From the IMG/VR virus record IMGVR_UViG_3300042865_001090: DNA of 20,000 nt. The stretch is one strand, 5' to 3'. This stretch comes from an uncultured virus (IMG/VR IMGVR_UViG_3300042865_001090) (Duplodnaviria; Heunggongvirae; Uroviricota; Caudoviricetes). Below the pieces are notes generated by a model, which worked only from the letters and a program-made list of their open reading frames with translations, was not told the DNA's origin and searched no databases. The first letter of the stretch is position 1, and each line of letters opens with the position of its first letter. A program made the translations under genes and the position numbers. This document shows positions 1-20,000 of the stretch, piece by piece.

Positions 1-1
1 T

Positions 2-2056: not shown

Positions 2057-5000
2057 GTGGCTAATTCATATTCCAATTTCGCAGAACGCAGGATAAACAA
2101 CCTGTCCAAGAATGGCGAATTAGAAATAGGTTTCATTCCCAAAATAGAGACCAAGGCCGAAAAACCAGAAGTAAATAAGCCTCCAGTAAAATATTCAAAC
2201 CCGTATGAAGAATACATAAAGACATGGGAGCCGGGGGACGTAATACCGCTTGTTCCACCAGGCAAGAGAATGCATTTTTGCACTTTCAACCCAAATATGC
2301 TGGATACAGATTCAACATTTTTTAGGTCAACACACAAACATTCCTCTCCGACGAAATTTAAATCGGGTGAACTGAATGACATCGAGTACAAGGTCCTTGG
2401 AAGGAAACTAAAGGACAGCCTTGACTCGCTACTGCGAAGAGCAGCCAAAACAAGAGGCTTATGGGTTGACGATAAAAACAAGCTTCGCTGCCCTCCGGGA
2501 ACACCAGCTGCAAACCAATTTACAGACATAACTGGCTCTAACTGCTTCATACCGTCACCAAGAACTGCCGCACAAAGTGGAGCTCGTGCAGTGCGTAGAG
2601 CAACAGCTGGCGCAACCCAGATGTCAACCCAGGTTGGCGGAAGAGTTGCTAGTGGATTCGATGCAGCTAGAGCAAACGCTGAACAAATTAGAGAACTTGG
2701 TTTTGAAAGAGTTCAAGAAGCAATGGGGTACGGTGGCAGAATTGCGCCCACTCCACAAATGGTTAGCGATACAGTCTCGGGAGCCATGAGGGCTACGAGG
2801 TTTGGTCTCATACCAAACCCTTCAGCGAGAACTGGAGGCAAGCAGCGTGGAGCACCGAAGGGCGTCGGCAACAATGTGTGGCAGCTTGGATTAAAAGAAC
2901 AAGTCTGGAGAGGCAGAAGAGCCACCGAACTTGCTCGCTCCACAAGGGATAGATTTAATAACCCAAACCGACCAGACGGACTAAGACTCCCACCGAGTCA
3001 GAACTTCCCGGCCGGTAGACCAATCGGCGACATAAGCCAAAAGGCTCAATTCGTTTCCGCAATGGCCGAACTATTTCCAAACGTTCCACAAGCAGAAATA
3101 GAAGAAATGTTTGACCAAGCAATTCCAATGAGCTTGAGCAGGATGGAAAGGTCAAAACTGAAGGCATCTTTGATTCAATACTGGTACTCCTGGATGGAAA
3201 ATGCAATTGCAAATCCAGAGCAGGCAAAATGGGTTACCTCTTTCGCGATAGATACGGAAATGGGGTCAGCGTTCGAAGTTAGATTTGATGCATTTGCTCC
3301 CTCGCCTTCAACGGGAGGAAGAAGAATTAGCCAAGCAGCATCAAACGCGGCTCAGGGAAGAACCGCAGAACAGGGTGGACTTCAGTTCTCCCTTGTTATG
3401 AATCCATGGGAAATGTGGTCACAGGTAAATCGCTCGGGCTTTGACAGAAATGGTCGAGCAAATGGAGTCGCTGATTCTGTTGAGGGTGACATGCACTATT
3501 TGGCCAACCATGAGTGGGGCCACGTTGCGCACTTCTCGAGTGTTATGGAGACACTTGGATTCCAAACGCAAAATCTTCAGAGATATCCGCTTGCACAAAC
3601 ACTCGTAAAACCACAGCAGGGTGGTCCCCAGTGGCAAAGACAGAAACAAGTCAATGCATGGATGATTGACTTTAGGCAAGCTGCGAATCCAACAGGAAAC
3701 AGAAGTATTCAGCTGTTAATCGACTCAGCAAACAATCTAAGCAGAAGGCAATATATTCGCTCTGGAAGTTGGGGAGGTTCGACCGGGTACACAAGGCAAG
3801 ACCTGGAGACCGATTTAAACAATTTTCATAATGCGCTAGCTGAGGCAATTGAAAACAACATCACCGATGATGCTGACGACCAGGAGTTGATGAGACAGTT
3901 TTCTGGTGGTGTTTATGCGGCAACATCAAACATAGAAGCCCGCGCAGAGTTCTTCGCATCCCGAAGATTGTTTGGAGACCCGGTACTAACAGGTGGGCAA
4001 ACAGGAATCCCATCCACGGTTGATGAGTTCGCGCGAACAATGGCTTCAGCCCAGGGAGCCACACGGACGCAGGCACAATACCGTTCCCAGATGGACGACA
4101 TTGGACAGAATGTTTTTAGTGTTCCTGGAAACGCATGGAATATTAGTGGTCGCATGGCTGGTTCTGGATTGCCACAACAAAGGCCAACACTTAAAACACA
4201 GGCCGTCAGAAGAGCTGTAGACCAAAACTATCCACGAAGCAATAGAAATAGGAGTTCCTCGGCTATTACTGGAGCAATGAGGTCATCCTCATTACAGCAG
4301 AGAACCACTTCTTCTCGTGACTGGAAAAATCAAGACACGATAAGTTCAATAAACACAAACAGGCCATTCACCGAAGAGCGTCAATCGCTGCCGGGAATGC
4401 TGCAATCAGCATTGGGAACTCAGCAATCATCTACACCAATCGTTGGAAGGATGTCCCCGCTGGTGCCAACAACGGTCACGGGTGTTAGGAATCGTTTCGA
4501 TGGCAGCAGGTCTGGTGATGTCGACATCAAGGTCCACGAAATAAACGGCGAAAAAATAGTATTTGATAATCCCGACGCAATATCAATCGATGACTCATCA
4601 ATAAAAATTATTCCTAAAAACCCATTTGAGATAACCGGAAAATCCAGAACCAGTAAGGAAGGTCGCGAATATTCAGAGAAGTGGCTCAATGCCCATCTAG
4701 GCAAAGGAGACATGGATTCGAATGATGTCGACGCCCTTCTGTATCGAGCATCACGCGGTGACACGGAGGCAGCAAAGGAATTCGATGGTTTAGCGGAAAA
4801 AGGAAGCAAGCGAGTCTCTGAAGCAGAAGGAAAATTGTATGAACCCATCGAACTTGATGAATACCAGGAAAGAACAATAACCCGAGCTGGTCTTGAGGAT
4901 TTGAGCCTAGATGACTTGTATGTTGTACATGAAACAAGTTACGAGCCAGAAATTGATGAAAATGGAGACATAAGCATCTCTCCTCGTTCTAACTTTGAGG

Positions 5001-8000
5001 AAACAACTGAATCCGGAAAGAAGGTAAGGGTTCCTCGCCACACGATTCACTTCGCATTAAATCACCTTGTTGGTGGACATATATTTAGGCAGCGCTCAGA
5101 AAAAGATACGACTATCTTAATAGCGCCACTGTCTCAGGTGCTAAGAGACAATCCAGATTCACTCGACAATCTATATACGCTTGATACTGTTCTTACACCA
5201 AAACCTGGTGAGGGGATAAAGCTCAAATCAGGAAGCTTCCGAAGACTCACTGGTACACCAGACAAAGAAGCAACAGAAGAGGCTGTTCGTCAGCAGCTAA
5301 ACGAAATGGGTGCAACAAAGATTTTTAAAGCAGAATCAGCAGAGTCTTCAACTGACGCACAGGATTTAGCAGTCGGCAAAATAGCCAGGCAGCTGAGAAC
5401 CCAATCGGGATTGCACGCAAACATCCCAAGCGGACAGGTCGAGCAGTATTTGATTCGCCAGGCTGGAAGTGGTGGTAGCGCTGAAGTGACGCTTCCGCCT
5501 AGTTGGGTGGCCGGAATGAGCAAAAACCATCGCCAAAGACTTGGTGATTCAAACTTCTGGAGCGATGCGAAACCAGCCCCAATCACCGGCTTTATGAGAA
5601 GCGGCTCGACCCCACAAGCAGGACAGAGCAGAATCAAGAAAAACAAAGACGGTGTGCCTCAGTACCCACGGACGCCAACCTACGGTCCAATGCTCGGTGA
5701 AACAGAAAATATTTTTGCTGGAGTTAATTCTTGGGAAGAATTTAAACAGAGATATAATGACCAGGAAATAGTCTTTCTTGATTATGAAACAACTGGTTTA
5801 GTATTCGACAAATATGGTCGCGCTACGGAAAACGGAAATCCGGTAGAAATAGGCGCAATAAAAGTAAAAAACGGACAAGTAATAGACAGATTCAACACAT
5901 TTGTCAATCCGGGAAAGCCTCTGCAGCAATGGTCTAAAGACAACTTGCGCGACGCAGACGGAAACCCCCTCACTGACCAATACCTACAGGGGGCTGAGTC
6001 TTTGGAGTCTGGGCACAAAAAACTTGTTGAATTTGCTGGACCAAATGCAATTATGGGTGTTCAAAACGCCGCATACGACAAGAACGTACTTGAAGACACT
6101 CTCCGTGAAGCGGGAATTGAATGGCAAGCAAGGGGCTGGATTGACCTCAAAGATATGGCCGGCATGACACTCCCAAGGTACACAGATGAAAATCCGGATG
6201 GACCACATAAGACAAATAAAGATGGAACAAAATCACCATCCAATGGACTTGCGGACATAACAAGATACCTCGGGGTCCCTCTTGGCAAAGAGCATCATAG
6301 AGCAGACAAAGACGCTGAAGCAACAGCGGAATCAATGCGTCTTTTGATTGATGGTGCAATTGAAAAGAATTGGTCAAAAGACGCTCTGGATAGAGCCAAG
6401 CGAAGTGCGTACGTCAAAAAAACACAAGACGATTTTGACTCAGATGTAAAAGAATGGGAGTCCGAGCTTGCAAAGTACTTAGGTGATGGAGTGTCGGGAA
6501 AGATGTCGTCATCACCTGCTTTGCGCTCTGCTCCACAGTTTGGCAGAAGACAGTCTCGTGAGTTCTATAGCTCGGTACCAAACAGTAAATTATGGAGACC
6601 GGAAACTCTCGAGCAAAGCGAACCATCACGAATTGCGAAAAGACAAGAAATAATCAAAGACATCAAAGGATTCATAGAGTCTGGCGATGGCGACGCAAAA
6701 TACATGTCTGCAATGAATGGACTTGACCCAGAATTTGCTAACTACATGCGCAATACCGAAGACCGCGAGATTCTGGCAGACCTTCGTCAGGCAGCAGTTG
6801 AATTTCATGCTGGCATCGACCAGAGACCACGTCTAAACGTAAACACTGCAGAACTTTCGAGCTTAATGGAAAATGGGCTACGAAGAGACGATTCAGGCAA
6901 ACCGCGACGTCTGTCAGAGAGAGTAAAAGCCTACGAAGCAGACATTGGAATTTCTCCAGACCTTCCCGACGCAGAACGCCCAATAACTGGATACATGGTG
7001 CATTCCGATGGCGACTTCGCTGAACAAGAGGCTTCATTTAGGGAGTTTTCTAATAAAGTTGATGTCAATTCTCCACGTTATAAGTTTGACCTTTTTAAGT
7101 CAAGTAACGAAAATCGCAACAATGGTTTCAATTCTATTTTTGGTGATGCTGAAATAATTCTAAAACCAGAAACCGGCCAAAGGACAGCTTACGGCAACGG
7201 TGACGCCCTTGATAATCACATATTTCCTGTCCTGGCAAACTCAACAGATTCTGACGAAATAGGTCGCGCACTCATTGACCCTAACGGAAGATTTGACGAA
7301 CGTGAATCAAATTCCATCGAACTTCTCTATGGAAAATTTAAAAATGATTTCAATGCCTACAGAAAAGATAACGGTCAAACTCGTCCACGGATAAGCGGAG
7401 CATGGGGAAATAGGGACGCCCTGATTATGGGCGGAATAGAGCCGAGTGATATCGAAGAGGTGAGGGTTCCGTTTAATTCTCTAGATATTACAAACTCAAC
7501 CACGCCGGAAGAATTTGCAAAAAAACCAAGAGAACTTAAGTACTTACCCGTTACTGAGTATGTAGACGAAGGCCCTGCGATTGCTTCCTCCGGCGCAGGA
7601 GCACCACCGCCGCCACCACCGCCAGATGACCCTGACAACAACATGACAGACGAAGAAATTTCTAAAATTCAAGAAAAAATGAAACGGAGTTTTGCGGCCA
7701 CAAAAGAAGAGCAAAAAATAATCGAAGATATTTTGTCTGGGTTAGAGCCAATTAATGCGATACCCAAAAATTTAGCCATACGAATTGACAACGTTAACGA
7801 ATACAGGAAAATCTCAGACGACTTTAGAAATCTAAGAAGAATTGAAGAAGCCGAAAGACTTCAGAGATTAGCGAAAGCAAGAGGTTTTAATCTTGCAGTA
7901 ACCAATGACTACGGATTGGACGTATTTGATGGGCGCTCATTCTCAAGTAAGGCTCCCAAGTCAAAAACATCAAAAGAAGTTATTGAGGCAAAAATAGACA

Positions 8001-8137
8001 AGCAGATAGAAGAACTTGTTGAGTCAATGCGTCAGGCAAAGTTCAAAAACATTAAAAATATTTCTGACTCCAGAAGCAGACTGGAAAAGATACAGGAAGA
8101 GTTTGATAAACTCACAGACGGCAGGAATGAAAAGTGA
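2057..8137 (+). CDS. Giant multi-enzyme (polyvalent-type) protein, 2026 aa: RCP..FT..C motif, HEXXH zincin metallopeptidase, His-rich unknown domain, DEDDh 3'-5' exonuclease, DUF3626-like domain, polyproline linker, coiled-coil tail
   Basis: 6.1-kb uninterrupted ORF with SD. HEWGH (3509-3523) plus YAATSNIEARAEFF (3914-3955). DYETTG, QNAAYD and HHRADKD exonuclease motifs. ERPITGYM...FGDAEIILK...RTAYGNGD...IMGGIEPSDIEEV. Confidence 0.9.
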   Translation: MANSYSNFAERRINNLSKNGELEIGFIPKIETKAEKPEVNKPPVKYSNPYEEYIKTWEPGDVIPLVPPGKRMHFCTFNPNMLDTDSTFFRSTHKHSSPTKFKSGELNDIEYKVLGRKLKDSLDSLLRRAAKTRGLWVDDKNKLRCPPGTPAANQFTDITGSNCFIPSPRTAAQSGARAVRRATAGATQMSTQVGGRVASGFDAARANAEQIRELGFERVQEAMGYGGRIAPTPQMVSDTVSGAMRATRFGLIPNPSARTGGKQRGAPKGVGNNVWQLGLKEQVWRGRRATELARSTRDRFNNPNRPDGLRLPPSQNFPAGRPIGDISQKAQFVSAMAELFPNVPQAEIEEMFDQAIPMSLSRMERSKLKASLIQYWYSWMENAIANPEQAKWVTSFAIDTEMGSAFEVRFDAFAPSPSTGGRRISQAASNAAQGRTAEQGGLQFSLVMNPWEMWSQVNRSGFDRNGRANGVADSVEGDMHYLANHEWGHVAHFSSVMETLGFQTQNLQRYPLAQTLVKPQQGGPQWQRQKQVNAWMIDFRQAANPTGNRSIQLLIDSANNLSRRQYIRSGSWGGSTGYTRQDLETDLNNFHNALAEAIENNITDDADDQELMRQFSGGVYAATSNIEARAEFFASRRLFGDPVLTGGQTGIPSTVDEFARTMASAQGATRTQAQYRSQMDDIGQNVFSVPGNAWNISGRMAGSGLPQQRPTLKTQAVRRAVDQNYPRSNRNRSSSAITGAMRSSSLQQRTTSSRDWKNQDTISSINTNRPFTEERQSLPGMLQSALGTQQSSTPIVGRMSPLVPTTVTGVRNRFDGSRSGDVDIKVHEINGEKIVFDNPDAISIDDSSIKIIPKNPFEITGKSRTSKEGREYSEKWLNAHLGKGDMDSNDVDALLYRASRGDTEAAKEFDGLAEKGSKRVSEAEGKLYEPIELDEYQERTITRAGLEDLSLDDLYVVHETSYEPEIDENGDISISPRSNFEETTESGKKVRVPRHTIHFALNHLVGGHIFRQRSEKDTTILIAPLSQVLRDNPDSLDNLYTLDTVLTPKPGEGIKLKSGSFRRLTGTPDKEATEEAVRQQLNEMGATKIFKAESAESSTDAQDLAVGKIARQLRTQSGLHANIPSGQVEQYLIRQAGSGGSAEVTLPPSWVAGMSKNHRQRLGDSNFWSDAKPAPITGFMRSGSTPQAGQSRIKKNKDGVPQYPRTPTYGPMLGETENIFAGVNSWEEFKQRYNDQEIVFLDYETTGLVFDKYGRATENGNPVEIGAIKVKNGQVIDRFNTFVNPGKPLQQWSKDNLRDADGNPLTDQYLQGAESLESGHKKLVEFAGPNAIMGVQNAAYDKNVLEDTLREAGIEWQARGWIDLKDMAGMTLPRYTDENPDGPHKTNKDGTKSPSNGLADITRYLGVPLGKEHHRADKDAEATAESMRLLIDGAIEKNWSKDALDRAKRSAYVKKTQDDFDSDVKEWESELAKYLGDGVSGKMSSSPALRSAPQFGRRQSREFYSSVPNSKLWRPETLEQSEPSRIAKRQEIIKDIKGFIESGDGDAKYMSAMNGLDPEFANYMRNTEDREILADLRQAAVEFHAGIDQRPRLNVNTAELSSLMENGLRRDDSGKPRRLSERVKAYEADIGISPDLPDAERPITGYMVHSDGDFAEQEASFREFSNKVDVNSPRYKFDLFKSSNENRNNGFNSIFGDAEIILKPETGQRTAYGNGDALDNHIFPVLANSTDSDEIGRALIDPNGRFDERESNSIELLYGKFKNDFNAYRKDNGQTRPRISGAWGNRDALIMGGIEPSDIEEVRVPFNSLDITNSTTPEEFAKKPRELKYLPVTEYVDEGPAIASSGAGAPPPPPPPDDPDNNMTDEEISKIQEKMKRSFAATKEEQKIIEDILSGLEPINAIPKNLAIRIDNVNEYRKISDDFRNLRRIEEAERLQRLAKARGFNLAVTNDYGLDVFDGRSFSSKAPKSKTSKEVIEAKIDKQIEELVESMRQAKFKNIKNISDSRSRLEKIQEEFDKLTDGRNEK
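3491..3960 (+). other. Zincin metallopeptidase catalytic core within the 2026-aa protein
   Basis: HEWGH zinc-binding motif plus a downstream YA-x5-E-x2-AE-F third-ligand helix, the pattern typical of anthrax-lethal-factor-like and phage metallopeptidase domains. Confidence 0.75.
5768..6350 (+). other. DEDDh (DnaQ/Pol III epsilon-like) 3'-5' exonuclease domain within the 2026-aa protein
   Basis: ExoI IVFLDYETTGL (D 5780, E 5786), VEIGAIKVKNGQVIDRFNTFVNP, ExoII QNAAYD (D 6077), ExoIII HRADKDA (H 6296, D 6311). All five catalytic residues are present. Confidence 0.92.
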
Positions 8138-8478
8138 AAAAGTACCTAATCGCCAAAGTCGGAAAAACTGGGAATCTCTATTTTGTTCCAGATGGCGACA
8201 GGTATAACGGCCTGTTTGTTGACGGCAAGAGATTATCCCCAGTTCCGCTGTTTTCTTTTATTGAACGACGTAATGACATCTTCCCAGTTATGAAGACCAA
8301 CAGACAGAAACGTTTCTGGAAGCTAGACTTCAGGGATAGTGACTGGTCCACTAGGCACAACACGGAAAACCCCGGAAAGATATCAAAGAATCCTTATAAT
8401 AAAAAAGCTTTAGATTTTTACGACCAACTAGAGGAAATCCAGCCAGTCCGCAAGCCAGGATTTCGGAAATCTAGTTGA
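8134..8478 (+). CDS. Hypothetical protein (114 aa), basic and aromatic-rich
   Basis: GTG start overlaps the upstream TGA (GTGA 8134-8137). Fills the gap between larger genes. Confidence 0.7.
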   Translation: MKKYLIAKVGKTGNLYFVPDGDRYNGLFVDGKRLSPVPLFSFIERRNDIFPVMKTNRQKRFWKLDFRDSDWSTRHNTENPGKISKNPYNKKALDFYDQLEEIQPVRKPGFRKSS

Positions 8479-8502
8479 CATGTATTTAAATCACAGTATT
8501 TT
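8475..8502 (+). promoter_or_regulatory. Candidate sigma70-type promoter
   Basis: Perfect TTGACA (8475-8480), 16-nt spacer, TATTTT (8497-8502). A TACAAT also lies at 8506-8511. Located in an AT-rich intergenic gap upstream of SD AGGAG (8541-8545). Confidence 0.45.
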
Positions 8503-8550
8503 GCGTACAATTAAATTCAGGGGTTTATTCACTGGTTGCAAGGAGACCAA

Positions 8551-9195
8551 ATGAGTCTGGTCAACAAAATTATGAATGGCGATGTCCAAATTGCCGTCGA
8601 CACAAAAGCAGCAGGACCTGCTGGCGCCATAATACCTCAAGAAAATATTACCGGTGATGTACTCAGGGGGTATGGACCGCGCAGGGGCAATCTTGAGCGC
8701 CTCCTTCGTTACTGGAGACCAATTATGCGCAAGCCTGGCGGGTTCAGGAGATGCCGAGTAATTCTTGCCGACCACCCAGAGCTTTACCCACTTGAAAGAA
8801 TATGCGCCTGGTTGCATCACGAAACAACTGGTCTGTGGCCAAATGAAGGGTGCCACCACCCAGGAATGAAAAACTGTCGCAAGAAGATGCGCGGGGTTGT
8901 TCGTGGCTCACTCTACTCTGACCAGGAATTCAACAATAGAATGCGCAAACTGACATCGCGCAGTGGCAGGAAGGCTGTAGAATTTACGGGTATACGCTCG
9001 GTTGATGAGCCCTTTTCCCCAGTCATCACGCAGGATGATTGGACCCATGCAGTGAAAGTATTACAAGATTTCATAGACATGGAACCGGACTTCGTTAAGT
9101 ACGTGGAAGACGAAAAAAACTGGGAACACGTCGATGGGTATGTTATCGATAAAAACGAATTGGAGTCGCTAGATGCGAACAATATTGAGTTCTGA
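8551..9195 (+). CDS. Phage-type hypothetical protein (214 aa from ATG 8551) with a Cys/His putative metal-binding domain
   Basis: AGGAGA at 8541-8546 supports ATG 8551 rather than TTG 8536. GNLERLLRYW...PGGFRRC...CAWLHHETTGLWP resembles a small domain I recall from actinobacteriophage head-region proteins. Confidence 0.8.
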   Translation: MSLVNKIMNGDVQIAVDTKAAGPAGAIIPQENITGDVLRGYGPRRGNLERLLRYWRPIMRKPGGFRRCRVILADHPELYPLERICAWLHHETTGLWPNEGCHHPGMKNCRKKMRGVVRGSLYSDQEFNNRMRKLTSRSGRKAVEFTGIRSVDEPFSPVITQDDWTHAVKVLQDFIDMEPDFVKYVEDEKNWEHVDGYVIDKNELESLDANNIEF

Positions 9196-11224
9196 TTGCT
9201 GCCCGTCCCAGGAGATTGTAAAAGTTAGACATATTTCTCCGTCTTTCGCACTATCTAGAACTAACCTTTTTACAGCGCCAATTTATTCTGTCAACGAAAG
9301 AAAATCAATTATTGATTTCAAATGCGCAATGCAGCGCAGAGGCGTAAAAAGTGCTTACGAAATAAAAGTCGGAGCGACTGGCTCGGACAGCAGAATTCTT
9401 CAATCTCTCCAGGGACTTGGTTCTGCCGTTACTCCGGGAAACTTTTCCAACGTGCGAAGTCCTGTTAGGTCACGAATTTACTCAGCTCTCACCCCGGGTG
9501 GTGGTCGAGGAGTTCCTGGTGGATTTGGCGCACTCAAGCCAGAGCGTGGATATAGATGTCCAGAAGGGTATCAATTCGGTGGAAGATTTACTGACTCACG
9601 TTTTTCTACATGTGGAAAACAACTATTCGACCTTCCTGGAATCATAGGCGCAACAATCGCCTCTGTTTTGCGTGGCTCTCGTCGTAGCCCATCCTTCCAG
9701 GATGTCGGTGGCACACGTGTTAAGCCAGTGTCTGTGGCTGGTGACGTAATCCAGTCGCGCGCGCCACAAATTCCAAAAGTTACTGGTGCTAACAGACAGC
9801 GCAGAAATCGCTCCGTCGATGACATAGTCGGACAGATGTCGCAGGTAAATGAAGCCTACATGAGAATGGTGCGGCGCGACGGCTTCATCTTGGAGCCGGT
9901 AGTTTCTCCTGCAGTTCTTAGGACAATCCCCGACAACAGAGATATGGAAGGCGCAACATTCCTGATGAATGCTTTGACGTCGGATTCAATTGGTGGAGAA
10001 GAACTTGGAATGCTTTCGAATACCGGCATTGAAAAACTATCCTATGTCCTATCTGGAGGTTCAACTGTTTCCATCGGGAAAGCTCGCCCGCTAACAGTTG
10101 GAGAACGACGCAAGCTTGGTAGAACTGTGGCCACGGCGGAGAAGCTGCGTGCCAATGATGACCCGGTTCAAAAATTAAAATTCATCGCAGAGGAAATGGG
10201 CGATGGAATATCTTATGAAGAAGAGTTTAAAGGAATAAAAAACCCGAATGAAATCATTAAAGTCAACCTCCCAGCAGGTGCTGGCAAGCGAACAATGCGC
10301 AGGTGGCATTATGAGACTTTCTATCGAAAGAAAAAGAAGTCAAAGCAGTCCGCTCGCTCCACAGAGCTAGAAGCAATTCCCGAAGACGATAAAATCAAAG
10401 ACCTTGCTTCTGCGGTCCGTCACCTTAATAATGGTGGTTCGATTGAGAATATTTCATCGAATGTTCGGTCGGAGGCTGTCAGTCGTAGCGCAATGTACAA
10501 GACTGGAAAAATACGAAACGGTGTATTGATTCACGAGCGTGCCGATGGACAAACGGTGTTTGAAATAACACCTGATGAGAACTTTGAACATCTGGGTGCC
10601 GCACTGGCATCAGAACTACAGCGCTCAATGGGTCTTATTGCGCCAAAGGTTCGTTTGGCTGGTGCTGGAAAAAAGCGCAACTATATGCTTGGAGAAGCTC
10701 AGGATGCAGAAATGTTTGGCGTTCAAGATAGGACAATGGACATTGCTGACCTCCCCTCGGAGGACGTTGTCGGAATTCTAATGTCCGACTATCTCACCGA
10801 TACCAGGGATAGAAACCCTTCCACGATTGCGCCAATACGCGTCGGTGGCAGAATGCGTGCAGTTGCTTCTTTGAATGGAAGTGCTGGTCTCTCGGGTATG
10901 ACCTCGACGGAAATACGCGGAAGACGACAAATGCAAGTAAACGATTTCTTCAAGAAAAAGCAGCAGAGAATATACGCTGAATATTTTGAAAAACTTCAGG
11001 CCCAGCAGCGCAAGAGGGCGTTAATGCTATTTGATAAGCTGCTCGAACAAGCAGGAGAATTTGATTTTAAGCGATTTAGACAAATGCTCTCAATAGATGG
11101 ACAGCTTTCTGAAGCAGAATTACTACATCTTGGGATTGTCGAAAAAATATTTGAACAGCGTGTCAACATACTTAAATCATCATCTGGAAATTTCAAGAAA
11201 CTGATTGGCTTATCGATTAGATGA
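9173..11224 (+). CDS. 683-aa protein: N-terminal RCP..FT..C motif and C-terminal degenerate HipA/PI3K-PI4K-like kinase fold
   Basis: GGAG at 9162-9165. 23-nt overlap with the upstream gene. ALASELQRSMGLIAPKVRL and DYLTDTRDRNPSTI...AVASLNG follow the HipA-like layout. Confidence 0.85.
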   Translation: MRTILSSDCCPSQEIVKVRHISPSFALSRTNLFTAPIYSVNERKSIIDFKCAMQRRGVKSAYEIKVGATGSDSRILQSLQGLGSAVTPGNFSNVRSPVRSRIYSALTPGGGRGVPGGFGALKPERGYRCPEGYQFGGRFTDSRFSTCGKQLFDLPGIIGATIASVLRGSRRSPSFQDVGGTRVKPVSVAGDVIQSRAPQIPKVTGANRQRRNRSVDDIVGQMSQVNEAYMRMVRRDGFILEPVVSPAVLRTIPDNRDMEGATFLMNALTSDSIGGEELGMLSNTGIEKLSYVLSGGSTVSIGKARPLTVGERRKLGRTVATAEKLRANDDPVQKLKFIAEEMGDGISYEEEFKGIKNPNEIIKVNLPAGAGKRTMRRWHYETFYRKKKKSKQSARSTELEAIPEDDKIKDLASAVRHLNNGGSIENISSNVRSEAVSRSAMYKTGKIRNGVLIHERADGQTVFEITPDENFEHLGAALASELQRSMGLIAPKVRLAGAGKKRNYMLGEAQDAEMFGVQDRTMDIADLPSEDVVGILMSDYLTDTRDRNPSTIAPIRVGGRMRAVASLNGSAGLSGMTSTEIRGRRQMQVNDFFKKKQQRIYAEYFEKLQAQQRKRALMLFDKLLEQAGEFDFKRFRQMLSIDGQLSEAELLHLGIVEKIFEQRVNILKSSSGNFKKLIGLSIR

Positions 11225-14200
11225 AAAAAGCAACGGTAATTAGAGACAAGCTCTCTGGTCAGCCTTTTGCAATACTTCTTCCATCCGATGGAAAGAAACC
11301 AGTTGCATTCGGCTCATCAGGCCAAGGGAGACTATGGGCCGACTGGGCGATGTCGTCCAGTAGCGGAGCGCTCGACAATCTCGATGTGTCTCTTACCGTC
11401 GAGAAAGATGTTGAACTAACCGATGAATTTATAACCTCACTCGAGAGCACTTTTGAAATTGCCGACTTAAACGAACTTAAATTCACCATCTCCAAAAAGG
11501 CGTTGCTGGTCATCGAAAAAGTAAAATCCCTTGCCGGAGAGGAGCCTGCAAAATATGAGCAGATGAACGAGGATAACGAGGAGGAACTCGTAGACAGATG
11601 GCCAGTAGTGGATGCTGCGATTGCGACCATCGATGTTGCCTATAAACAAAATGCTCTTGACTACAAGGCAAAGGCTTTCAACCTTGATTCAAAACGCAGC
11701 TCAATGCTGCTGCAAGTCAAGGGCGTAAGAGCCATGTGGGACCCAAACATGCCTGGCGGGGGTGGATGGAGATGCCCTGACGAAACGGTAAATGGTGGCC
11801 AGTTCACCAACAGACTTGGTCGTGGGTGCACATTTGGGGCAATACGCAGAATAGGCAGGGCATTGATGACTGCCTCCCTGAAGGACATTGCAAAGGGTTT
11901 TGATGATGATGAGGTGGCCTTTCCGAGCGTCTACAGGGCTGGAAAGAAACTAGACGAGGTTGGAGAAAAACTCAAAGAAAGAACAGGGAAAAAATACAGC
12001 CGCAGAGCGATGAGGAGGGCTGACCAGCTCAAAAAAGAACAAGCTCGTCAGATGCTAAAAGAATCTCGCCCAACGTTTAGACAAAGATATGAATCGCTTG
12101 GGCCAACAGTAAGTAGACGCAACAGGGTTCTAATAGCCGCCTCTCAAACCGCCAGAGACGTTGCCGATGACCAGGCAACCAGAGGTTTTGTTTCTGAAGC
12201 CAGGAGACGCACTCGCAGACAAGGCATCCCCACAAGAAAAACACCAACAAATGATACTGAAACCTTCTCAAATGACGACACCATAACTGGCGCCATGAGC
12301 CCAGAGCGAAGGGCTCAGATTGCGGAAAAACTGAGAACAACAGCACAAGACATTTACGAAGGTCGACGTTTTGCAAGACGACAAAAAAAATCGGAACGAA
12401 AACAGACAAAAAACTCACCACAACTCAATGAAAACGAACTAGAGCGCAGCAACAGGATTGCTACAAAGCAAATTGATTCAATACTTGGCGTACTCAAGCA
12501 AAGAGACTCGGGTAGAGAGTATCTTGCCGGAGTTGTGAATTCAGCGGTGAGCAATTTGAATAATTGGGCTAAAGAAAAAACTGATGGATTAGGGTTTCCT
12601 AACAGGGTTTATACAGAAGCCGACTTCGACGATAACGATGTACAGATAATCGAACGGGCTCTGCGTGAGCTAAAAGAAAACCCAGACAAGCCATTTGCGG
12701 ACCAACAGTGGGGTAGATTTGCGCAATTATTCAAGCTTTGGGGAACGCACAACTGGGCGGTAAATCGCTCTATGCCACTGCAAAATAACGACGGAAATGT
12801 AATTTCAGATTATATTCCAAGATTAAAAAAACCTTTTGGGCAAACAGATGTGTTTCCGGAGCTATGGGTAGATGGTCGTTCGGTCAATGAGTTTGGATTG
12901 CGCACGCCTGAGGAGTTGACCGAATTAAATAACGCCCACACTACTCTTGGTTTTCTCGACATTGACACAAAAATTCCAGACAAAGACCAGACACTCTCCA
13001 TGCTCGGCGGATTTTACTCTGACGAAGAAGGTGATGTTTTCGGTGGCTACTACAAGGAGTTTATCGCCGATGAATCAAAATTTTCGGTTTCGGCGAGAGA
13101 AGTTTTGGCAAATGGGCTAAAGCGCAATCATGAAATAGACTTGCGTAAGTTTTTACATAATAAATTTTATGGCTCAACCGCGTGGAACTCTCCAAAGAAA
13201 ACCACAAACAGGGAAACTGAGATAACGCCATCACAGTCCATTGTTGAGCGTTTCATGCGTGGACTAAGTCCTTCGCGTGACAAAGAACAACGAACTCTTG
13301 AAAGAGAACTCAGAGGAAAGACGCCTCGCAGTACAACCGAATTGCGCGAAAGAATTGCTCGACGACAGAGACGGCGAGCAAAGGAGCAAGCTGGTGAGCT
13401 GGTCACGTTTGAGGATTATGCAGACTACGAGCAGCTCAAAATAAACAGACCAGAACTTGTTGGCGGAAAGCGAAAGCTTAATGAATTTACAGAACCAACA
13501 CCTCCGAATAAAACCAGAATGCGTGCGCGCGAACGCTGGAGGACCAAACCATCCGAAGAGGGTCGCCCAAAGGTCGACATCATCCTGCGAGACATGGAGC
13601 CACACCTATCCTCAAGCGGAGATGTAAATGAAAACACCATCAAAGGTCTTGATGACCTAGATAGATTTTTTCAAGCGGAAGTAAATCATGCCGCAATCGC
13701 CAGACTGCGAGAGTCCGCCCTGACTCCATACGACACAGAAAATCAGGATGAACTCAAAAAGATTTACGGAGACTGGCTGCGCTCATTCAACGACTCAGAT
13801 GCGGACCCGCAGCCGGGTTCCCCATCAAACATGGGACTCACTGAGCAGACATCGATATCGTGGGTTGTTCCCGGTGAACCAGGGTTTCTCACCAGGAATC
13901 TGGATGAAGCATGGGAATTTGCAACTTCAAAATCAGAAGAAGATAGCAATTTCGACCCACGCACGCTAGACGCGGTAGGGGACAGAATTGTTCTCCGAGC
14001 AAATCAATTCAACGGACGTCCTGTGGTTTACGTAGAAGATACGGAGGCGCAGGTTGCTCACCTTATGACTCCGGATGGAAGACACCTGATGTCGATTGTG
14101 ACATCGCGGGACGACTCAGACGAGCCAGGAAAAGTTAGATTTATCAGCGGCTCCGCGGCCTTGGAGCAAATCGCAAGAACAAAAATGCGTCCAACAGTTT

Positions 14201-17200: not shown

Positions 17201-17610
17201 GGTACGCTCAACATCTCAGCTGGTTCGTGCAGCTCGCGCAGATGCGCCGAGATGAATCACAACCTGGGCAAGCAGGCACAGATGCAAAAGAGTACAATAC
17301 AAGACTCAATTCAGCCATGCGAAGCATTCTGTATTTAGGGGCAGAATCTCGCGCATCAATGTTGGGGGTTGACGCATTGATTCCCGATGTGGCTCAAACG
17401 GTGCTTCCATCGGAATTATTTCAAGCTATCAGCAGGCCTGACAATCCGGCCGGGGACAGGGTGCTGATGATGAATCGCTCAGGTATGATTATGCTGAGGA
17501 CAGGAATAAAGCACTATACCGATATCGTAAGTCACCTGAGGAATCTGCAGGTCCCAAAACCAAACGGAACCGCATACTCACCTATAAACGATAGAAACTG
17601 GGGACGTTAA
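11221..17610 (+). CDS. Giant protein, 2129 aa: RCP..FT..C motif, Arg/Lys-rich segments, long helical region, C-terminal putative ADP-ribosyltransferase-fold domain
   Basis: 6.4-kb uninterrupted ORF with ATGA coupling to the upstream gene. C-terminal motifs LPVLVNQEELD, ITRGV, GHGEYW, LGVDA and MMNRSGMI. Confidence 0.88.
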   Translation: MKKATVIRDKLSGQPFAILLPSDGKKPVAFGSSGQGRLWADWAMSSSSGALDNLDVSLTVEKDVELTDEFITSLESTFEIADLNELKFTISKKALLVIEKVKSLAGEEPAKYEQMNEDNEEELVDRWPVVDAAIATIDVAYKQNALDYKAKAFNLDSKRSSMLLQVKGVRAMWDPNMPGGGGWRCPDETVNGGQFTNRLGRGCTFGAIRRIGRALMTASLKDIAKGFDDDEVAFPSVYRAGKKLDEVGEKLKERTGKKYSRRAMRRADQLKKEQARQMLKESRPTFRQRYESLGPTVSRRNRVLIAASQTARDVADDQATRGFVSEARRRTRRQGIPTRKTPTNDTETFSNDDTITGAMSPERRAQIAEKLRTTAQDIYEGRRFARRQKKSERKQTKNSPQLNENELERSNRIATKQIDSILGVLKQRDSGREYLAGVVNSAVSNLNNWAKEKTDGLGFPNRVYTEADFDDNDVQIIERALRELKENPDKPFADQQWGRFAQLFKLWGTHNWAVNRSMPLQNNDGNVISDYIPRLKKPFGQTDVFPELWVDGRSVNEFGLRTPEELTELNNAHTTLGFLDIDTKIPDKDQTLSMLGGFYSDEEGDVFGGYYKEFIADESKFSVSAREVLANGLKRNHEIDLRKFLHNKFYGSTAWNSPKKTTNRETEITPSQSIVERFMRGLSPSRDKEQRTLERELRGKTPRSTTELRERIARRQRRRAKEQAGELVTFEDYADYEQLKINRPELVGGKRKLNEFTEPTPPNKTRMRARERWRTKPSEEGRPKVDIILRDMEPHLSSSGDVNENTIKGLDDLDRFFQAEVNHAAIARLRESALTPYDTENQDELKKIYGDWLRSFNDSDADPQPGSPSNMGLTEQTSISWVVPGEPGFLTRNLDEAWEFATSKSEEDSNFDPRTLDAVGDRIVLRANQFNGRPVVYVEDTEAQVAHLMTPDGRHLMSIVTSRDDSDEPGKVRFISGSAALEQIARTKMRPTVSERIAKLTGRQRRRTASLSKPAEQAKTKKRLNIGFANGEPVGLFFGKTTTGRRLNTLSPLAMTESEMAEITKSIEENLDILENNLRRRLGYPDLNQPISTVDAAARIEEVRKTSGRFAGILETDLHNMIALSRAQESNDILYINDLKPALRNKILENVSSSYLEIGLSSGNKRYDVVPHKGRPAAAKKVIKLPQRAPLMVSESSLAPDPSTVGTGPDLTPGVGNAQLGIEYEASTGLYKDSVSLEYIEDYSNLPIEQTAIYDPVLPDETKTYPRVSITPAGVFPTRFATLAPEVNPDGDAIKPGDVATRTFKDAIEAYISSRVLTGKAKTDPTAAAVDRILGRNVEAESLRANILARVDARGYKPTKTNGDPVFSVPPTLGQLTFAEMQALANSSIESNPDSSMTDLGLTFSSVSPNAELGSIAGKRAFEDVFRTSFIDGLGLDMDLEPSLFYIPSESVKGNDINEMLVDINRALQLQNAADLLRASLSSSFSDAKAAKLQQLQDEANDAWQQASKTLSTSYRDAATARNDALAILSDNPKNKSAMSMYLQMGARAEAAKMLLDKHITSNQVALDAITAMRRTELEGMAKSRNQRKRAMLDRVKARANKGIPRNEGAFDATPELLDPWGTATPPLQPRSLDDILAVRAQHRAEGLYDDPTQGIAQLAEEQIDALVAMDVIQKKAADAMQGNGDGSDPSKFTGMENTPMYGADFDYTQRADVQVAHFWYYNGSSSLPVLVNQEELDEILTSVDSSGNRRALVITRGVKASTGTTAEKTAQEEEWVNMALRGDRFVPGSGGKAEGHGEYWTFNPGGGWSSYHGGHGGTMIAVITDQSEIFHKDVFHALFSGNSGQLYENLWGIYNAIGAPDSTGVNASHGQQVARLLAPNSVLPDANTGQFTATQLAQLEDVVQQLTAIGPDLTVRKSSRSRLKALDISDEWGAFTLEGLYRDSPLGTRPPHSSMSQSAWEDMFRDVRLTPDTPENIRIIEETKALRQKVNAWYAQHLSWFVQLAQMRRDESQPGQAGTDAKEYNTRLNSAMRSILYLGAESRASMLGVDALIPDVAQTVLPSELFQAISRPDNPAGDRVLMMNRSGMIMLRTGIKHYTDIVSHLRNLQVPKPNGTAYSPINDRNWGR

Positions 17611-17990
17611 TGAGCAATGCAAACATCGACTCAGACGATGCGAGATATCAGTACAATCGCGGAAAATTTATAGACAAATACTTTGACCTGTTCGAAAACT
17701 TGAATTTTCCACCTATGTTCATCGCAGGTCAAGACCTTGTCGCAGGTGAATATGAAATGGCTCTCAAGGAAGCGTACATTGATGGATTATCAGTACCCAG
17801 AATAGATTTCGTCACCGGTGATGCAAAACCATTTTCCGAATTTGAATCTAAATTCAAAAAAGAAATAGATGAAGCAAAGAAATTTAGAAGTGCAACAAAC
17901 GACAACCACCGATTGGCCTTGGATTTGTATGCAAAAGAAAATGGTGAACTTCACGAGTCGGAGTACATGAAGCAACAAAAGAGACCGTAA
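17610..17990 (+). CDS. Hypothetical protein (126 aa), acidic/aromatic
   Basis: TAATG overlaps at both ends (17608-17612 and 17988-17992). Confidence 0.8.
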   Translation: MSNANIDSDDARYQYNRGKFIDKYFDLFENLNFPPMFIAGQDLVAGEYEMALKEAYIDGLSVPRIDFVTGDAKPFSEFESKFKKEIDEAKKFRSATNDNHRLALDLYAKENGELHESEYMKQQKRP

Positions 17991-20000
17991 TGAAAAATGA
18001 AGAAGAGTTAGTCCCTAAGCTTTTCTCTAAAAAGAAAAAACGCACACGTAAGCGTTCTGCTGGAGAACATCGTGACGGATGGGAAAATTTGGGGGAACGT
18101 GGCGTTGTCAGAATAGATGCAAGCCCTGGTGGTGGAATAACAGGGGTTAATGTCGGCGGTATTTCTGGAAAGGGAGTGCCACGGGTCGGCCGTAGATTGG
18201 GCTCAATAGGTAGGGCTGCAAGAAGGAAATTTCAAAAAGTTTCACGAGATGGTGACGGTGATGGAAAATGGACAAACCCCCTTACGGGTGAAGACAATTT
18301 GCCATACAACCCTTCTGGAAAACCAGACGCGACTGATTTGCCTGGTGCAATAAACCTACCAAGCCCCAGCGACACAAATGGTCGGCAACGACGCAAGTTT
18401 CTTTCAGATATGGAAAATCACGTAATGAGATTGACCACTGGGGGGATAGATTCTCTGGAAGTTGAAATTGAAGACAGAATCACAGCAATGCAGTTGAGAG
18501 GCCGGGTTCACTACTGGAATAGACCGGGAACCAGGGATATAAAAACTTCTTACAATGGAAATAAATTCAGAGCCTACGCTTCAACTGGTCCTAAGTCTGG
18601 GAAAAAAGTAACAATTAGCGGAGCAATGGCGTCCGGTCCACCCAGGAATGAAACACCCTACATCGGTGACGAAAAACTGATTGAAGAGCAGGCAAACCAA
18701 ACACAAAAGTTTTTGCGCTGGAAGCAGAATGACGATTGGAAAAATTTCCACATTGAGCATTACGACTGGTGGACATTCCCAATAGACAAAGGCTCTGGAC
18801 CGTACGGATTTATGTACGACGTCAGTGGCGAGCCACTTGAAAGGCTTAAACAAAACCAGAGTTATCTTGCATCGATTCGAGATGCAGCTTCCGCCTACAT
18901 GGAAAGCCTTGGATGGAACATGAGAACCGGGTGGTGGATTCCAAATCCAAGACCAGACCAAAAACCTAACGGGAACATAAATCAACAGCGTTTGTTTAAA
19001 ATAGGACGGTCGCTTCAAATACACGAACTGAATGATTCTTTCAATTCTGTGCGGCACCTAGTGGAGACACTGAAGGCTAATGGGGTGCGCGTAGGGAACG
19101 ATGAATACTGGTCAAATCCGAGCAAATACACACCAAGGTCTCGTTTTAAAGATTCTGATGGCGTTGTTGGAAGGATGGCTCTCGGAATTAGTCCAAAAGC
19201 ATTCAAGGGTCACCAGGAGTTAATTGACCCAATGGATGCCAGCTTCAGGAGGGTGTGGAATGATAGAGATGAACGAAATGCAATTAAAAGCAAAATAAAA
19301 AATGATTTGACTTTTGATTGGAAGGACGAAAACTCGCGCAGGGATTATATTAATAAACTTTGGAGAAATGACCTAACCCCAGAATACGCAAATTTTGCTA
19401 AAAAGATTTCTCCGCAAACAAGAAATTCTGCTGATGGAAAAACCGGTCTAAACCCAATACTGAAGGAAAACCTTGGCCTCATAAATGATTTGGGTGTTCA
19501 CTGGACATCACGAACGGGTGCGCGCGGTCAAGCAACATTTCGAGACCAATATGGCTCCCTGTTCGGGCACGCCACAACACCAATGGGAGAGGACGCATAC
19601 GCCAATCAAGTCAGAGATATTCTAGGCTATTTTGCACCGACGATTAATCCAGATTTGTATTGGAATAGATTTGAATCGTGGATTAGGAATCCATTTTCTG
19701 TAGTTCGTGATAAAAAGACCGGAAACGACATAGGAGTGCGACTTTACTTCAATGACGACAGAGATGAGCTGGTTAAAGAATTTAATAAAAGAATTACACG
19801 TCTCTATGCAGCTGTCGCCGAGGCATACGGCCATAGGCCCGAAGACAAGCCTTTTATTCCCTTGCCCGAACATGAGGAAATGGACACCTTTTCACAAGAT
19901 GATGTTTTGGAGTACATCCGAAAGCAGATGAATGCGTTGATTAATTCCCCCGAGCTGCCCATGCACCAAACACCAACGGTTGAAGCGTTGAGAAAAGAAC
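17990..20000 (+). CDS. Large protein, 5' part only (>670 aa, runs off window): basic N-terminus, DGDGDG motif, OGFr_N/DUF1810-like module
   Basis: Not in the ORF track because it has no stop in the window. Manual translation from ATG 17990 (MKNEEELVPKLFSKKKKRTRKRS...) stays open to 20000. Contains RDGDGDGKW, ISGAMA, HYDWWTFP, RLFKIGRSL and VVGRMA. Confidence 0.88.
   Translation, partial: MKNEEELVPKLFSKKKKRTRKRSAGEHRDGWENLGERGVVRIDASPGGGITGVNVGGISGKGVPRVGRRLGSIGRAARRKFQKVSRDGDGDGKWTNPLTGEDNLPYNPSGKPDATDLPGAINLPSPSDTNGRQRRKFLSDMENHVMRLTTGGIDSLEVEIEDRITAMQLRGRVHYWNRPGTRDIKTSYNGNKFRAYASTGPKSGKKVTISGAMASGPPRNETPYIGDEKLIEEQANQTQKFLRWKQNDDWKNFHIEHYDWWTFPIDKGSGPYGFMYDVSGEPLERLKQNQSYLASIRDAASAYMESLGWNMRTGWWIPNPRPDQKPNGNINQQRLFKIGRSLQIHELNDSFNSVRHLVETLKANGVRVGNDEYWSNPSKYTPRSRFKDSDGVVGRMALGISPKAFKGHQELIDPMDASFRRVWNDRDERNAIKSKIKNDLTFDWKDENSRRDYINKLWRNDLTPEYANFAKKISPQTRNSADGKTGLNPILKENLGLINDLGVHWTSRTGARGQATFRDQYGSLFGHATTPMGEDAYANQVRDILGYFAPTINPDLYWNRFESWIRNPFSVVRDKKTGNDIGVRLYFNDDRDELVKEFNKRITRLYAAVAEAYGHRPEDKPFIPLPEHEEMDTFSQDDVLEYIRKQMNALINSPELPMHQTPTVEALRKE

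Follow-up and report, generated by a model that had tools for sequence, protein, structure and literature searches.

A hexapeptide repeated between the modules of giant proteins in the head-gene region of an uncultured myovirus, a probable cleavage signal for its Peptidase_S78 prohead protease

The stretch of DNA analysed here, called the window below, comprises 20,000 nucleotides and corresponds to positions 66228-86227 of the genome of an uncultured 160-kb myovirus, for which no close cultured relative was found. Pfam and PHROG matches identify genes for a terminase, a portal protein with a Mu F domain, a protease, a capsid protein and a sheath protein in this genome. The genes follow one another as terminase, portal (with the MuF-like domain), Peptidase_S78 prohead protease with a scaffold-like tail, giant genes and major capsid protein, and the window covers the left two thirds of a block of about 30 kb in this head-gene module, referred to as the cargo block. 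The features of the window are listed below; a site is a copy of the hexapeptide [IV]-[STV]-G-x-M-[ARS], the strict motif, a pattern drawn from the window's own copies.

1..109, plus strand: 3' end of the gene for the 881-aa prohead protease-scaffold protein (genome 63691-66336)
442..1986, plus strand: 514-aa acidic protein, rich in Asp, Glu and Met, which adjoins the protease in relatives too
2057..8137, plus strand: 2026-aa predicted cargo polyprotein (from the ORF, Pfam, relatives and a structure model)
2486..2545, plus strand: leader Cys motif RCP-x-QFT-x-C, aa 144-163, a candidate capsid-targeting element
2774..2791, plus strand: site VSGAMR, aa 240, at the border of the leader and the zincin-like module
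3509..3523, plus strand: HEWGH, aa 485-489, with which the zincin-like module would bind zinc
4142..4159, plus strand: site ISGRMA, aa 696, kept in relatives as '..WN-ISGRM' (pLDDT<50)
4265..4282, plus strand: site ITGAMR, aa 737 (pLDDT<50)
4439..4456, plus strand: site IVGRMS, aa 795, about 2-6 residues ahead of the folded His-rich domain (AF2 model)
5582..5599, plus strand: site ITGFMR, aa 1176, in the linker that joins the His-rich domain to the DEDDh nuclease (AF2 model)
5771..6331, plus strand: DEDDh (RNase_T/DnaQ-like) exonuclease core, aa 1239-1425 (Pfam 4.8e-11, PDB sequence hits, Foldseek)
6491..6508, plus strand: site VSGKMS, aa 1479, 2 residues past the last helix of the nuclease domain (AF2 model)
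6983..7000, plus strand: near copy ITGYMV, aa 1643, kept in close relatives
9173..11224, plus strand: 683-aa cargo protein with a leader Cys motif at 9554-9613 and one site
9824..9841, plus strand: site IVGQMS, aa 218, kept in relatives L012 and L020
11221..17610, plus strand: 2129-aa cargo protein with a leader Cys motif at 11770-11829 and one site
12283..12300, plus strand: site ITGAMS, aa 355 of the 2129-aa protein
17990..19999, plus strand: first 670 codons of the gene for a 784-aa cargo protein, which ends at genome 86571, past the window
18614..18631, plus strand: site ISGAMA, aa 209 of the 784-aa protein
19163..19180, plus strand: site VVGRMA, aa 392 of the 784-aa protein

The 2026-aa protein is built from a leader, a zincin-like module, two short spacers, a His-rich domain, a DEDDh nuclease and a C-terminal module. 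The nuclease had been named in an earlier note made from the sequence, and the name is borne out by the Pfam RNase_T match over aa 1239-1425 and by Foldseek matches to PolC and epsilon exonucleases. The zincin-like nature of the module at aa 240-695, proposed in the same note, is only a lead: it is suggested by the HEWGH stretch and by Atlas scores of 0.89 to M90/ATLF clusters, and the module has no Pfam match at E up to 1. Two other labels, 'DUF3626-like' and 'OGFr-like', found no support, there being no such Pfam match at the same threshold. The conserved RCP..QFT..C motif of the leader is present in three of the cargo proteins. No recognisable family was found in the 1769 aa that follow the site of the 2129-aa protein, and the 514-aa acidic protein, whose gene contains acidic repeats at about 700-1000, has no strict copy of the motif. 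Beyond the window, the gene next after that of the 784-aa protein encodes a 3915-aa protein with Pfam matches to NUDIX, Zeta_toxin and two Sigma70_r4 domains.

The earlier note had listed nine copies of the hexapeptide, and all nine are exact in coordinate and ORF; the list was one short, IVGQMS in the 683-aa ORF being the tenth, and it did not include the near copy ITGYMV either. These 10 copies compare with 0.057 expected from composition, and none of 1000 per-protein shuffles reached 10 copies, the maximum being 1; the corresponding Poisson probability of about 1e-19 is inflated because the pattern was defined on the same data. In the whole genome (160,282 bp; 183 ORFs, 50,351 aa), the strict motif occurs 13 times, always within five adjacent genes that have the head-protease gene on one side and the major capsid gene on the other. 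The 3 copies that lie outside the window all belong to the 3915-aa gene, and the scan of the 183 ORFs found none in the remaining ~40,000 residues. When Ala is also allowed at position 2, the cargo block contains 20 copies for 0.44 expected (9,996 aa) and the rest of the genome 4 for 2.8 expected (40,355 aa). The motif is thus far more frequent than in shuffled sequences and restricted to one gene block. Its codons vary from copy to copy and none of the 20 largest families of direct DNA repeats overlaps a site; the constraint therefore acts on the protein, as the earlier note had suggested.

A similar confinement is found in uncultured relatives, hundreds of which keep the motif at the homologous module borders. 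In their ORFs that follow the protease gene or precede the capsid gene, the strict motif occurs 121 times (432 distinct ORFs, 277,044 aa), as opposed to once in the 271,587 aa of their other ORFs, while the reversed pattern, used as a control on the same two sets, gives 14 and 22. In 117 giant proteins from databases sharing the leader, class A of the motif occurs 279 times, for 14.4 expected. The leader and the zincin-like module are the most widely kept part of the first giant protein, and the DEDDh module has moved: it is relocated, relative to this phage, in the four relatives L038, L046, L051 and L069. The motif has stayed beside it, bracketing the module on either side at a distance of a few residues in L038 and L046 and marking its exact start in L051. 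The hexapeptide is retained while the flanking linker sequence diverges. More diverged lineages each use a variant of their own, for example P-V-G-x-M, P-T-A-x-M or L-S-G-x-M; some have a linker motif without Met, R-L-S-S-G-[AR], and some of those examined have no motif at all. Gly (or Ala) is the only residue that is invariant over all the variants.

The position of the sites with respect to folded domains was examined on an AF2 model of aa 680-1560 of the 2026-aa protein. All five sites of this region fall in segments with pLDDT below 50, which set apart two confidently modelled domains (model residues 123-488 and 512-797). The flanks of 20 sites are low in order-promoting residues (0.19 vs 0.28), a value that none of 20,000 resamples equalled. 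The sites thus lie in disordered linkers between folded domains, and the sequence-level checks suggested in the earlier note, on enrichment, linkers, conserved borders and the swapping of modules between relatives, all favour its proposal of a processing signal that delimits modules. On the whole this proposal is partly supported; it may not hold for every copy, since VSGIMS, at aa 2651 of the 3915-aa protein, probably sits inside a J-domain-like fold.

The gene on the left edge of the window, between the portal gene and the cargo block, encodes the candidate processing enzyme. Its 881-aa product matches Pfam Peptidase_S78 at aa 38-182, just left of the window, with 42.4 bits (cut-off 21), as well as DUF6321, and its PHROG assignment is head maturation protease (PHROG_80, 3.4e-27). 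The alignment of the S78 homologues reveals two invariant stretches, VVWGHNW and EWSIGYKT. In relatives, the protease-scaffold protein itself carries the motif, in a Pro-rich linker ahead of its C-terminal helical domain, and the variant found there is that of the cargo of the same lineage (ITGRMG, PVGRMA, PVAAMA, LSGAMS). In this phage the two candidate places are degenerate, TMGRMG and ITGRTR, the former being probably structural because the sequence at this place does not change with the variant of the lineage. Lineages with different variants or none still share 71-87% identity in the S78 domain, in which the putative catalytic stretches are invariant, and no covariation of protease and substrate is visible across the lineages compared. 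L030, L063 and L091 have a polyprotein of 2,900-4,000 aa with 7-10 sites, whose N-terminal module is the S78 domain, recognised by the same Pfam match as in this phage. The major capsid protein has no copy of the motif in 58 distinct aligned N-termini; its N-terminal region is a coiled coil, followed by a variable linker and then by a conserved stretch K-[ST]-[IVL]-G-x-[MLA]-F (aa 103-108), which is related and differently ordered.

The model we propose, and which we regard as probable on the grounds of sequence comparisons, is that the motif is where the HK97-type Peptidase_S78 prohead protease cleaves, so that the cargo packaged in the capsid would be cut into its modules. The giant genes encode polyvalent proteins, i.e. 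chains of unrelated enzyme and DNA-binding modules. These chains would be loaded into the procapsid, probably by means of the N-terminal leader with its RCP..QFT..C motif. The prohead serine protease would then cut at each [G/S/N]-[I/V]-[S/T]-G-x-M-[S/G/A] linker, resulting in the removal of the leader and the release of one module per interval, and the pieces would be delivered with the DNA. The cut may well fall after the small residue, as in the related herpesvirus assemblins, with no less likelihood than after Met, since Gly or Ala is what all the variants share. The location of the giant genes between the S78 protease and capsid genes, together with the motif in the protease-scaffold protein of the relatives, supports the action of the head protease.

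The processing of internal head or ejection proteins by a prohead protease is known for T4 gp21 (IPI-III, Alt) and phiKZ gp175. In SPN3US and related giant phages, the substrates of the prohead proteases are packaged proteins of the head and of ejection as well as the proteases themselves, with 14 sites in 9 proteins and the motif AXE for SPN3US (PMC10052503). The system proposed here would resemble these, in which a phage head-maturation protease (gp245 in SPN3US) acts on packaged proteins, on the scaffold and on itself at a short motif, removes N-terminal propeptides and cuts some substrates several times. The present system differs by its protease, which is of the HK97-type Peptidase_S78 and not of the T4 gp21 type, by a motif based on Gly and Met instead of x-x-Glu, and by its chains of enzyme modules of 700-3,900 aa, with a site at nearly every border, which is a true polyprotein layout. 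Polyvalent proteins have been likened to RNA-virus polyproteins by Iyer, Burroughs, Anand, de Souza and Aravind in 2017 (PMC5512222); in the relevant sections of their paper, the genes for these proteins neighbour those of the portal and the terminase, the products are expected to enter the capsid and to be injected, embedded zincins are proposed as processing enzymes, assemblin-like peptidases are found at C termini, and no cleavage motif is given in section 8 and related passages. The proteins described here likewise combine unrelated enzymes: RNase_T in the 2026-aa protein, where the model shows two folded domains, and NUDIX, a Zeta-toxin-type kinase and the sigma-r4 HTH in the 3915-aa protein, besides the putative zincin-like module, a type of domain that polyvalent proteins often, though not always, contain. 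Compared with the sections cited, what is particular here is a defined signal between modules and an S78 protease situated upstream or at the N terminus.

The herpesvirus assemblin has a protease fold related to that of phage prohead proteases and cuts at (V/L/I)-x-A|S. By analogy, the phage motif may be aligned with these sites, an aliphatic residue being found two places before the small residue and small residues following it; in both cases the protease is fused to a scaffold and cuts, or in the phage would cut, its own polypeptide. Unlike the motif, the assemblin sites need no Met, and the assemblin substrates are scaffold only and not enzyme cargo. Eukaryotic positive-strand RNA viruses make one translation product that their own protease, bordered by sites of its own, cuts into separate enzymes at a repeated short signal. 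Here, in contrast, the virus is a dsDNA tailed phage and shares no homology with them, and the products would presumably be virion cargo for the next infection and not replication enzymes of the same cell.

Could the zincin-like metallopeptidase embedded in the 2026-aa protein cut the motif instead, in cis and in trans, either within the head or once injected? A hydrophobic P1' residue is commonly favoured by zincins, and Met would provide one. The module with HEWGH is itself bracketed by sites and belongs, with the leader, to the part most widely conserved in the relatives, and zincin-like MPTases are the processing enzymes proposed for polyvalent proteins in the passages of PMC5512222 mentioned above. 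We nevertheless consider this unlikely: the fused polyproteins of L030, L063 and L091, with their 7-10 sites and S78 domain, have no HExxH in the stretch fetched, the leader protein of L072 and L084 contains HExxH although these lineages lack the motif, and in L070 and L082 a 1452-aa protein contains HExxH twice and lacks class-A sites. Furthermore, the motif is also carried by the protease-scaffold protein, and the zincin assignment itself consists of weak leads. Cutting by a host enzyme following injection, or by a phage HslV/proteasome-like peptidase, seems very improbable. The data do not constrain the timing of the cutting, and the genome does encode an HslV-family peptidase (PHROG 8.3e-26, with a weak Pfam Proteasome match); this gene, however, is distant from the head module (genome 142778-143473), we know of no HslV-type peptidase with short sequence-specific sites, and head assembly is suggested both by the motif in the protease-scaffold protein and by the setting in the head module.

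The motif might also remain uncut and serve as a docking peptide between modules, binding to the inner side of the capsid, to the scaffold or to the portal, or guiding an ordered ejection. Encapsulin shells share the HK97 fold, and such a tag would be comparable to their cargo-loading peptides. A short linear motif in disordered linkers, specific to each lineage while the protease domain is almost unchanged, is consistent with docking, as is a related G-x-M stretch that both the N-arm region of the capsid protein and the scaffold portion of the protease protein conserve. Known targeting peptides, however, are terminal and single, while the motif is internal; its up to ~10 copies per chain, their placement at module borders and the shuffled modules flanked on both sides form the pattern of a separator rather than of a single address tag, and the separate N-terminal leader motif is a better targeting candidate. 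We thus hold docking to be rather improbable. It is hardly probable that the motif is a conserved linker element with no role in processing or docking, such as a hinge inherited with the shuffling junctions. A common linker could travel along with recombination junctions, but the hexapeptide is kept though its flanks diverge and its codons differ, and independent lineages each hold one sharp variant; such a selection on about five residues implies the recognition by a partner.

In conclusion, the cleavage of packaged cargo by the S78 prohead protease is the explanation that we favour. Could a large clade of uncultured phages package its early-acting enzymes as true polyproteins, addressed by a leader and cut by the S78 protease at a 'small residue-x-Met' code that each lineage can tune? 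This broader proposal is tentative, and we place it slightly on the doubtful side of even. If it is true, every injected effector, with the precise limits of its mature form, could be read directly from sequence, and the modules would be exchangeable between phages as pre-formatted cassettes. It would provide a dsDNA-phage counterpart to the polyprotein strategy of RNA viruses, as well as a substrate code, the first to be defined, for an S78 protease that acts on cargo.

The [IV]-[STV]-G-x-M-[ARS] hexapeptide of the giant proteins is probably a proteolytic processing site, and the sequence-level evidence speaks well for reading it as a cleavage signal. The window holds nine ORFs, all co-directional on the + strand, and the scan of their translations returned each of the nine hexapeptides listed in the earlier note exactly where it had placed them, together with a tenth strict copy, IVGQMS, in the 683-aa ORF (9824-9841) and a near copy, ITGYMV (6983-7000). 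The ten copies compare with 0.057 predicted from composition, and none of 1000 per-protein shuffles reached ten (maximum, one); since the pattern was derived from the same data as this enrichment figure, independent tests carry more weight. Codon usage differs among the copies, as had been remarked, and no site coincides with any of the 20 largest families of direct DNA repeats, which places the constraint at the peptide level.

The genome is one contig of 160,282 bp, and the window spans its bases 66228-86227. Beyond the window, 90 ORFs of 150 aa or more were scanned against PHROG and Pfam; the matches identify the phage as a myovirus, with genes for tail sheath, tail chaperone, baseplate-region proteins and large terminase. 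The interval between the protease and capsid genes is a block of giant genes (2026, 683, 2129, 784 and 3915 aa), to which we ascribe a cargo role, and the genes that frame or complete it are the following (L004 to L006 being loci of this genome).

Genes framing or completing the giant-gene block
genome 61348-63636 (L004:4549-6834): portal protein with a C-terminal Mu F-like domain (Phage_portal + Phage_Mu_F; Pfam)
genome 63691-66336 (last codons, window 1-109): 881-aa protease-scaffold protein (Pfam/PHROG)
genome 86675-98422 (L005:2676-14420): 3915-aa polyvalent protein, directly right of the window (Pfam)
genome 98768-100108 (L006:69-1406): HK97-fold major capsid protein (PHROG/Pfam)

The 881-aa protein opens with an HK97-type Peptidase_S78 prohead protease domain (42.4 bits; cut-off 21), behind which come DUF6321 and a long tail. 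The 3915-aa protein is typical of the polyvalent kind: a Zeta-toxin-type kinase, a NUDIX domain and a pair of sigma-70 region-4 domains share the chain with a J-like stretch that lacks HPD. It bears three strict and six looser copies of the motif. Across the genome (183 ORFs, 50,351 aa scanned) there are 13 strict copies, all within the five giant genes and none in the remaining ORFs; when Ala is allowed at position 2, the block holds 20 copies for 0.44 expected and the genome outside it four for 2.8 expected. A 1648-aa protein at the tape-measure position (L003:7675-12618, - strand; genome 44931-49877) contains LTGAMG at aa 44, IAGAMS at aa 582 and VSGAMG at aa 829, which could be chance occurrences in a Gly/Ala/Met-rich protein or tape-measure processing sites.

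Several other features of this genome deserve mention. A 514-aa protein (window 442-1986), conserved in almost every relative as the next gene downstream of the protease, has a long Asp/Glu/Met-rich repeat region (about 700-1000) and the looser G-x-M strings KCGAMA, KKGAMM and RLGTMG; a scaffold-like or charge-balancing role in the head is possible. The N-terminus of the 784-aa protein (aa 87-91, window 18248-18262) and the protease-scaffold linker (aa 563-567, L004:8578-8592) have an Arg-rich, DGDGDG-containing stretch in common (blastp E 1.5e-4), to which the N-terminus of the 3915-aa protein bears a weak likeness (E 0.003). Elsewhere lie a gene for an HslV/proteasome-like peptidase (L008:5522-6214, - strand; genome 142778-143473; PHROG 8.3e-26) and four clustered 2OG-Fe(II) oxygenase-like paralogues, accompanied by several glycosyltransferases and methyltransferases (L002:3935-17906, genome about 22500-36500), possibly a DNA or surface modification module.

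The position of the sites relative to predicted folds agrees with cleavage between modules. In the AlphaFold2 model of aa 680-1560 of the 2026-aa protein (18-row alignment, mean pLDDT 71.8), two domains are confident (model residues 123-488 and 512-797). The separating segments, of pLDDT below 50, hold all five sites (17-22, 58-63, 116-121, 497-502 and 800-805), and at two of these the edge of a domain is only a few residues away, in keeping with the module borders proposed in the earlier note. Over the 12 residues on each side of every one of the genome's 20 core sites, W/F/Y/I/L/V/C/M are depleted (0.19 vs 0.28, a value as low in none of 20,000 resamples) and S/G/P/T/N/Q/R enriched. The one exception to linker placement belongs to the 3915-aa protein, whose VSGIMS (aa 2651) is within the J-domain-like stretch (Pfam DnaJ 25.2 bits, below the cut-off; no HPD). 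As regards module identities, Foldseek upheld the DEDDh nuclease label, the second model domain being a DnaQ/PolC-type exonuclease, and its search with the two-domain model gave DEDDh matches alone, none for the His-rich domain. The labels "DUF3626-like" (C-terminal module) and "OGFr-like" (bracketed module of the last ORF) found no Pfam match at E up to 1, nor did the leader, zincin-like and His-rich modules or the pieces of the 683-aa and 2129-aa proteins. In the latter protein a very large module of 1769 residues (window 12301-17607) comes after the only site, without Pfam or PHROG match and with a best Atlas match of 0.79 that gave no lead; a PDB sequence search with the whole protein returned 0 matches.

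Megablast of the window against cultured phages found no close relative, nor did tblastn with the protease or the 2026-aa protein, of which the nuclease core alone matches. The best cultured capsid matches (48-49% identical) are Gordonia and Brevibacterium myophages, which carry enzyme genes, including an RNA ligase, between portal and capsid genes, joined in Gordonia phage ChisanaKitsune by an ADP-ribosyltransferase and an HNH endonuclease; they have no copy-rich motif of this kind and offer no handle by way of proteomics. Among IMG/VR viral contigs, 227 hold a relative of the protease and 390 one of the capsid protein, from which 80 protease and 80 capsid loci were retained. Their cargo-side ORFs, which follow the protease gene or precede that of the capsid protein (432 distinct ORFs, 277,044 aa), contain 121 strict copies and their other ORFs (1,030 ORFs, 271,587 aa) a single one, for 14 and 22 copies, respectively, of the reversed-pattern control; as the sequences share kinship, the counts show conservation and not 121 independent events. 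Conservation in homologues, which the earlier note had made a test of its proposal, is seen at homologous borders, such as "..WN-ISGRM" after the zincin-like module, despite diverged flanking linkers. In a collection of 5.8 billion proteins, 117 giant proteins sharing the leader bear 279 motifs of the Ile/Val-Ser/Thr-Gly-x-Met type for 14.4 expected.

The pieces of the 2026-aa protein, split at its sites, were each compared with the relatives by BLAST. The DEDDh module lies right after the spacers in loci L038 (alignment 786-1081, sites at 790 and 1088) and L046 (802-1076, sites at 796 and 1080), with a copy of the motif on either side no more than a few residues away. In L051 (2275-2564, beginning exactly at site 2275) and L069 it is found towards the C-terminal end of the ORF as fetched. 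Such placement and bracketing indicate that homologues rearrange modules at the motif, the swapping that had been put forward as a check.

Upstream of the first site, three cargo proteins have in common the sequence [RK]CP-x(3-10)-[QRKG]F[TS]-x(3-9)-C.

Leader Cys motif (+ strand)
window 2486-2545: aa 144 of its protein
window 9554-9613: aa 128 of its protein
window 11770-11829: aa 184 of its protein

Among the relatives, 88 copies occur in cargo-class ORFs, at least 60 of them within the first ~155 residues, and none in the other ORFs (271,587 aa). Each of the 117 leader-bearing proteins from the database shows it, between aa 77 and 238. A capsid-targeting sequence is known in T4, and by analogy the Cys motif is a candidate capsid-targeting element; the leader that holds it would be cut off at the first site.

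The 165 distinct sites of the relatives give the profile [G/S/N]-[I68/V32]-[S56/T27]-G-[R/A/K]-M-[S27/G23/A18]. Judged by their sequences, diverged lineages carry a putative signal of their own rather than none.

Lineage variants of the motif in loci of uncultured relatives
L063: G-P-[V/I]-G-x-M, nine to ten copies
L030: G-P-[V/A]-G-x-M
L091: P-[T/I/V]-[A/G]-x-M, about ten copies
L058, L074, L090: L-[S/T]-G-x-M
L139, L115, L153 (in giant ORFs that precede the capsid gene) and database proteins P0065-P0115: R-L-S-S-G-[A/R], Met-less

There is essentially one class per genome, the only residue common to all classes being Gly or Ala; LSSG occurs 119 times in the 117 leader-bearing proteins, and four loci with smaller, separate cargo genes (L067, L072, L084 and L089) contain no motif of any class.

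Which enzyme would cut is a matter on which the S78 prohead protease seems to us somewhat favoured. In the relatives' protease-scaffold protein, a copy of the motif closes the Pro-rich linker before the C-terminal helical domain and takes the form proper to each lineage (ITGRMG, PVGRMA, PVAAMA, LSGAMS, LTGALT); the equivalent place in this phage reads ITGRTR and, in the AlphaFold2 model (638-643), ends a long linker of low confidence that leads into a helix. In three lineages S78 is itself the N-terminal module of a polyprotein of 2,900-4,000 aa that also holds sigma-r4 and nuclease modules.

S78-headed polyproteins, each with its lineage's variant 7-10 times
L030:6051-14837
L063:9995-19564
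L091:9989-21940

A third line is what prohead proteases are known to do: SPN3US gp245 cuts 14 sites in nine head proteins, plus itself, at AXE (PMC10052503). These three lines together make S78 the best candidate. The main rival is the zincin-like module of the 2026-aa protein, which has HEWGH at aa 485; zincins have been proposed as processing enzymes of polyvalent proteins by Iyer et al. (PMC5512222), whose passages on the subject give no cleavage motif. However, the three S78-headed polyproteins have no HExxH within their fetched part, and in the loci examined, where the fetched stretches are incomplete, HExxH presence does not follow motif presence.

The S78 assignment meets difficulties of its own. 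Across all motif classes the domain keeps 71-87% identity and its catalytic stretches are invariant, so that no visible change in the protease accounts for the variants; nor is protease-substrate covariation visible in a domain too conserved to show it. Another conserved stretch of the protease protein, NP-x-x-G-R-M-G-x-LAKA, does not track the variants (it is kept in all lineages, even motif-less ones, and its Met is lost in lineage B); rejected as a co-varying cut site, it is probably a structural element. The capsid protein has merely a related stretch, K-[ST]-[IVL]-G-x-[MLA]-F at aa 103-108, conserved in 58 distinct N-termini after a coiled-coil region and a variable linker, which cannot be equated with the motif and may be a capsid maturation site. 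A complex prediction of S78 (aa 1-200, alignment A2) with a 36-residue ITGAMR linker gave no answer (score 0.00) and is evidence neither way.

Processing by S78 would resemble, in its mode of working, the prohead-protease processing of internal and ejection proteins, and its candidate substrates belong to the polyvalent proteins. It would differ from the known cases by an HK97-type protease, a Gly/Met-based motif with lineage variants, and a regular polyprotein layout with a separate leader. In the part of the open-access literature searched, we found no published description of such a motif.

Proteins injected with phage DNA set the first minutes of infection, through anti-defence, transcription takeover and repair, and they are hard to spot from sequence. 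Should the motif be a cut code, one could predict from sequence the borders of modules and a repertoire of candidates for packaging, many domains without known family among them, in hundreds of uncultured relatives (227 protease-bearing and 390 capsid-bearing contigs, 117 leader-bearing giant proteins). The idea, put forward in general terms in PMC5512222, that polyvalent proteins undergo processing would also be made concretely testable, and prohead-protease processing of cargo would extend from T4-type to HK97-type (S78) proteases.
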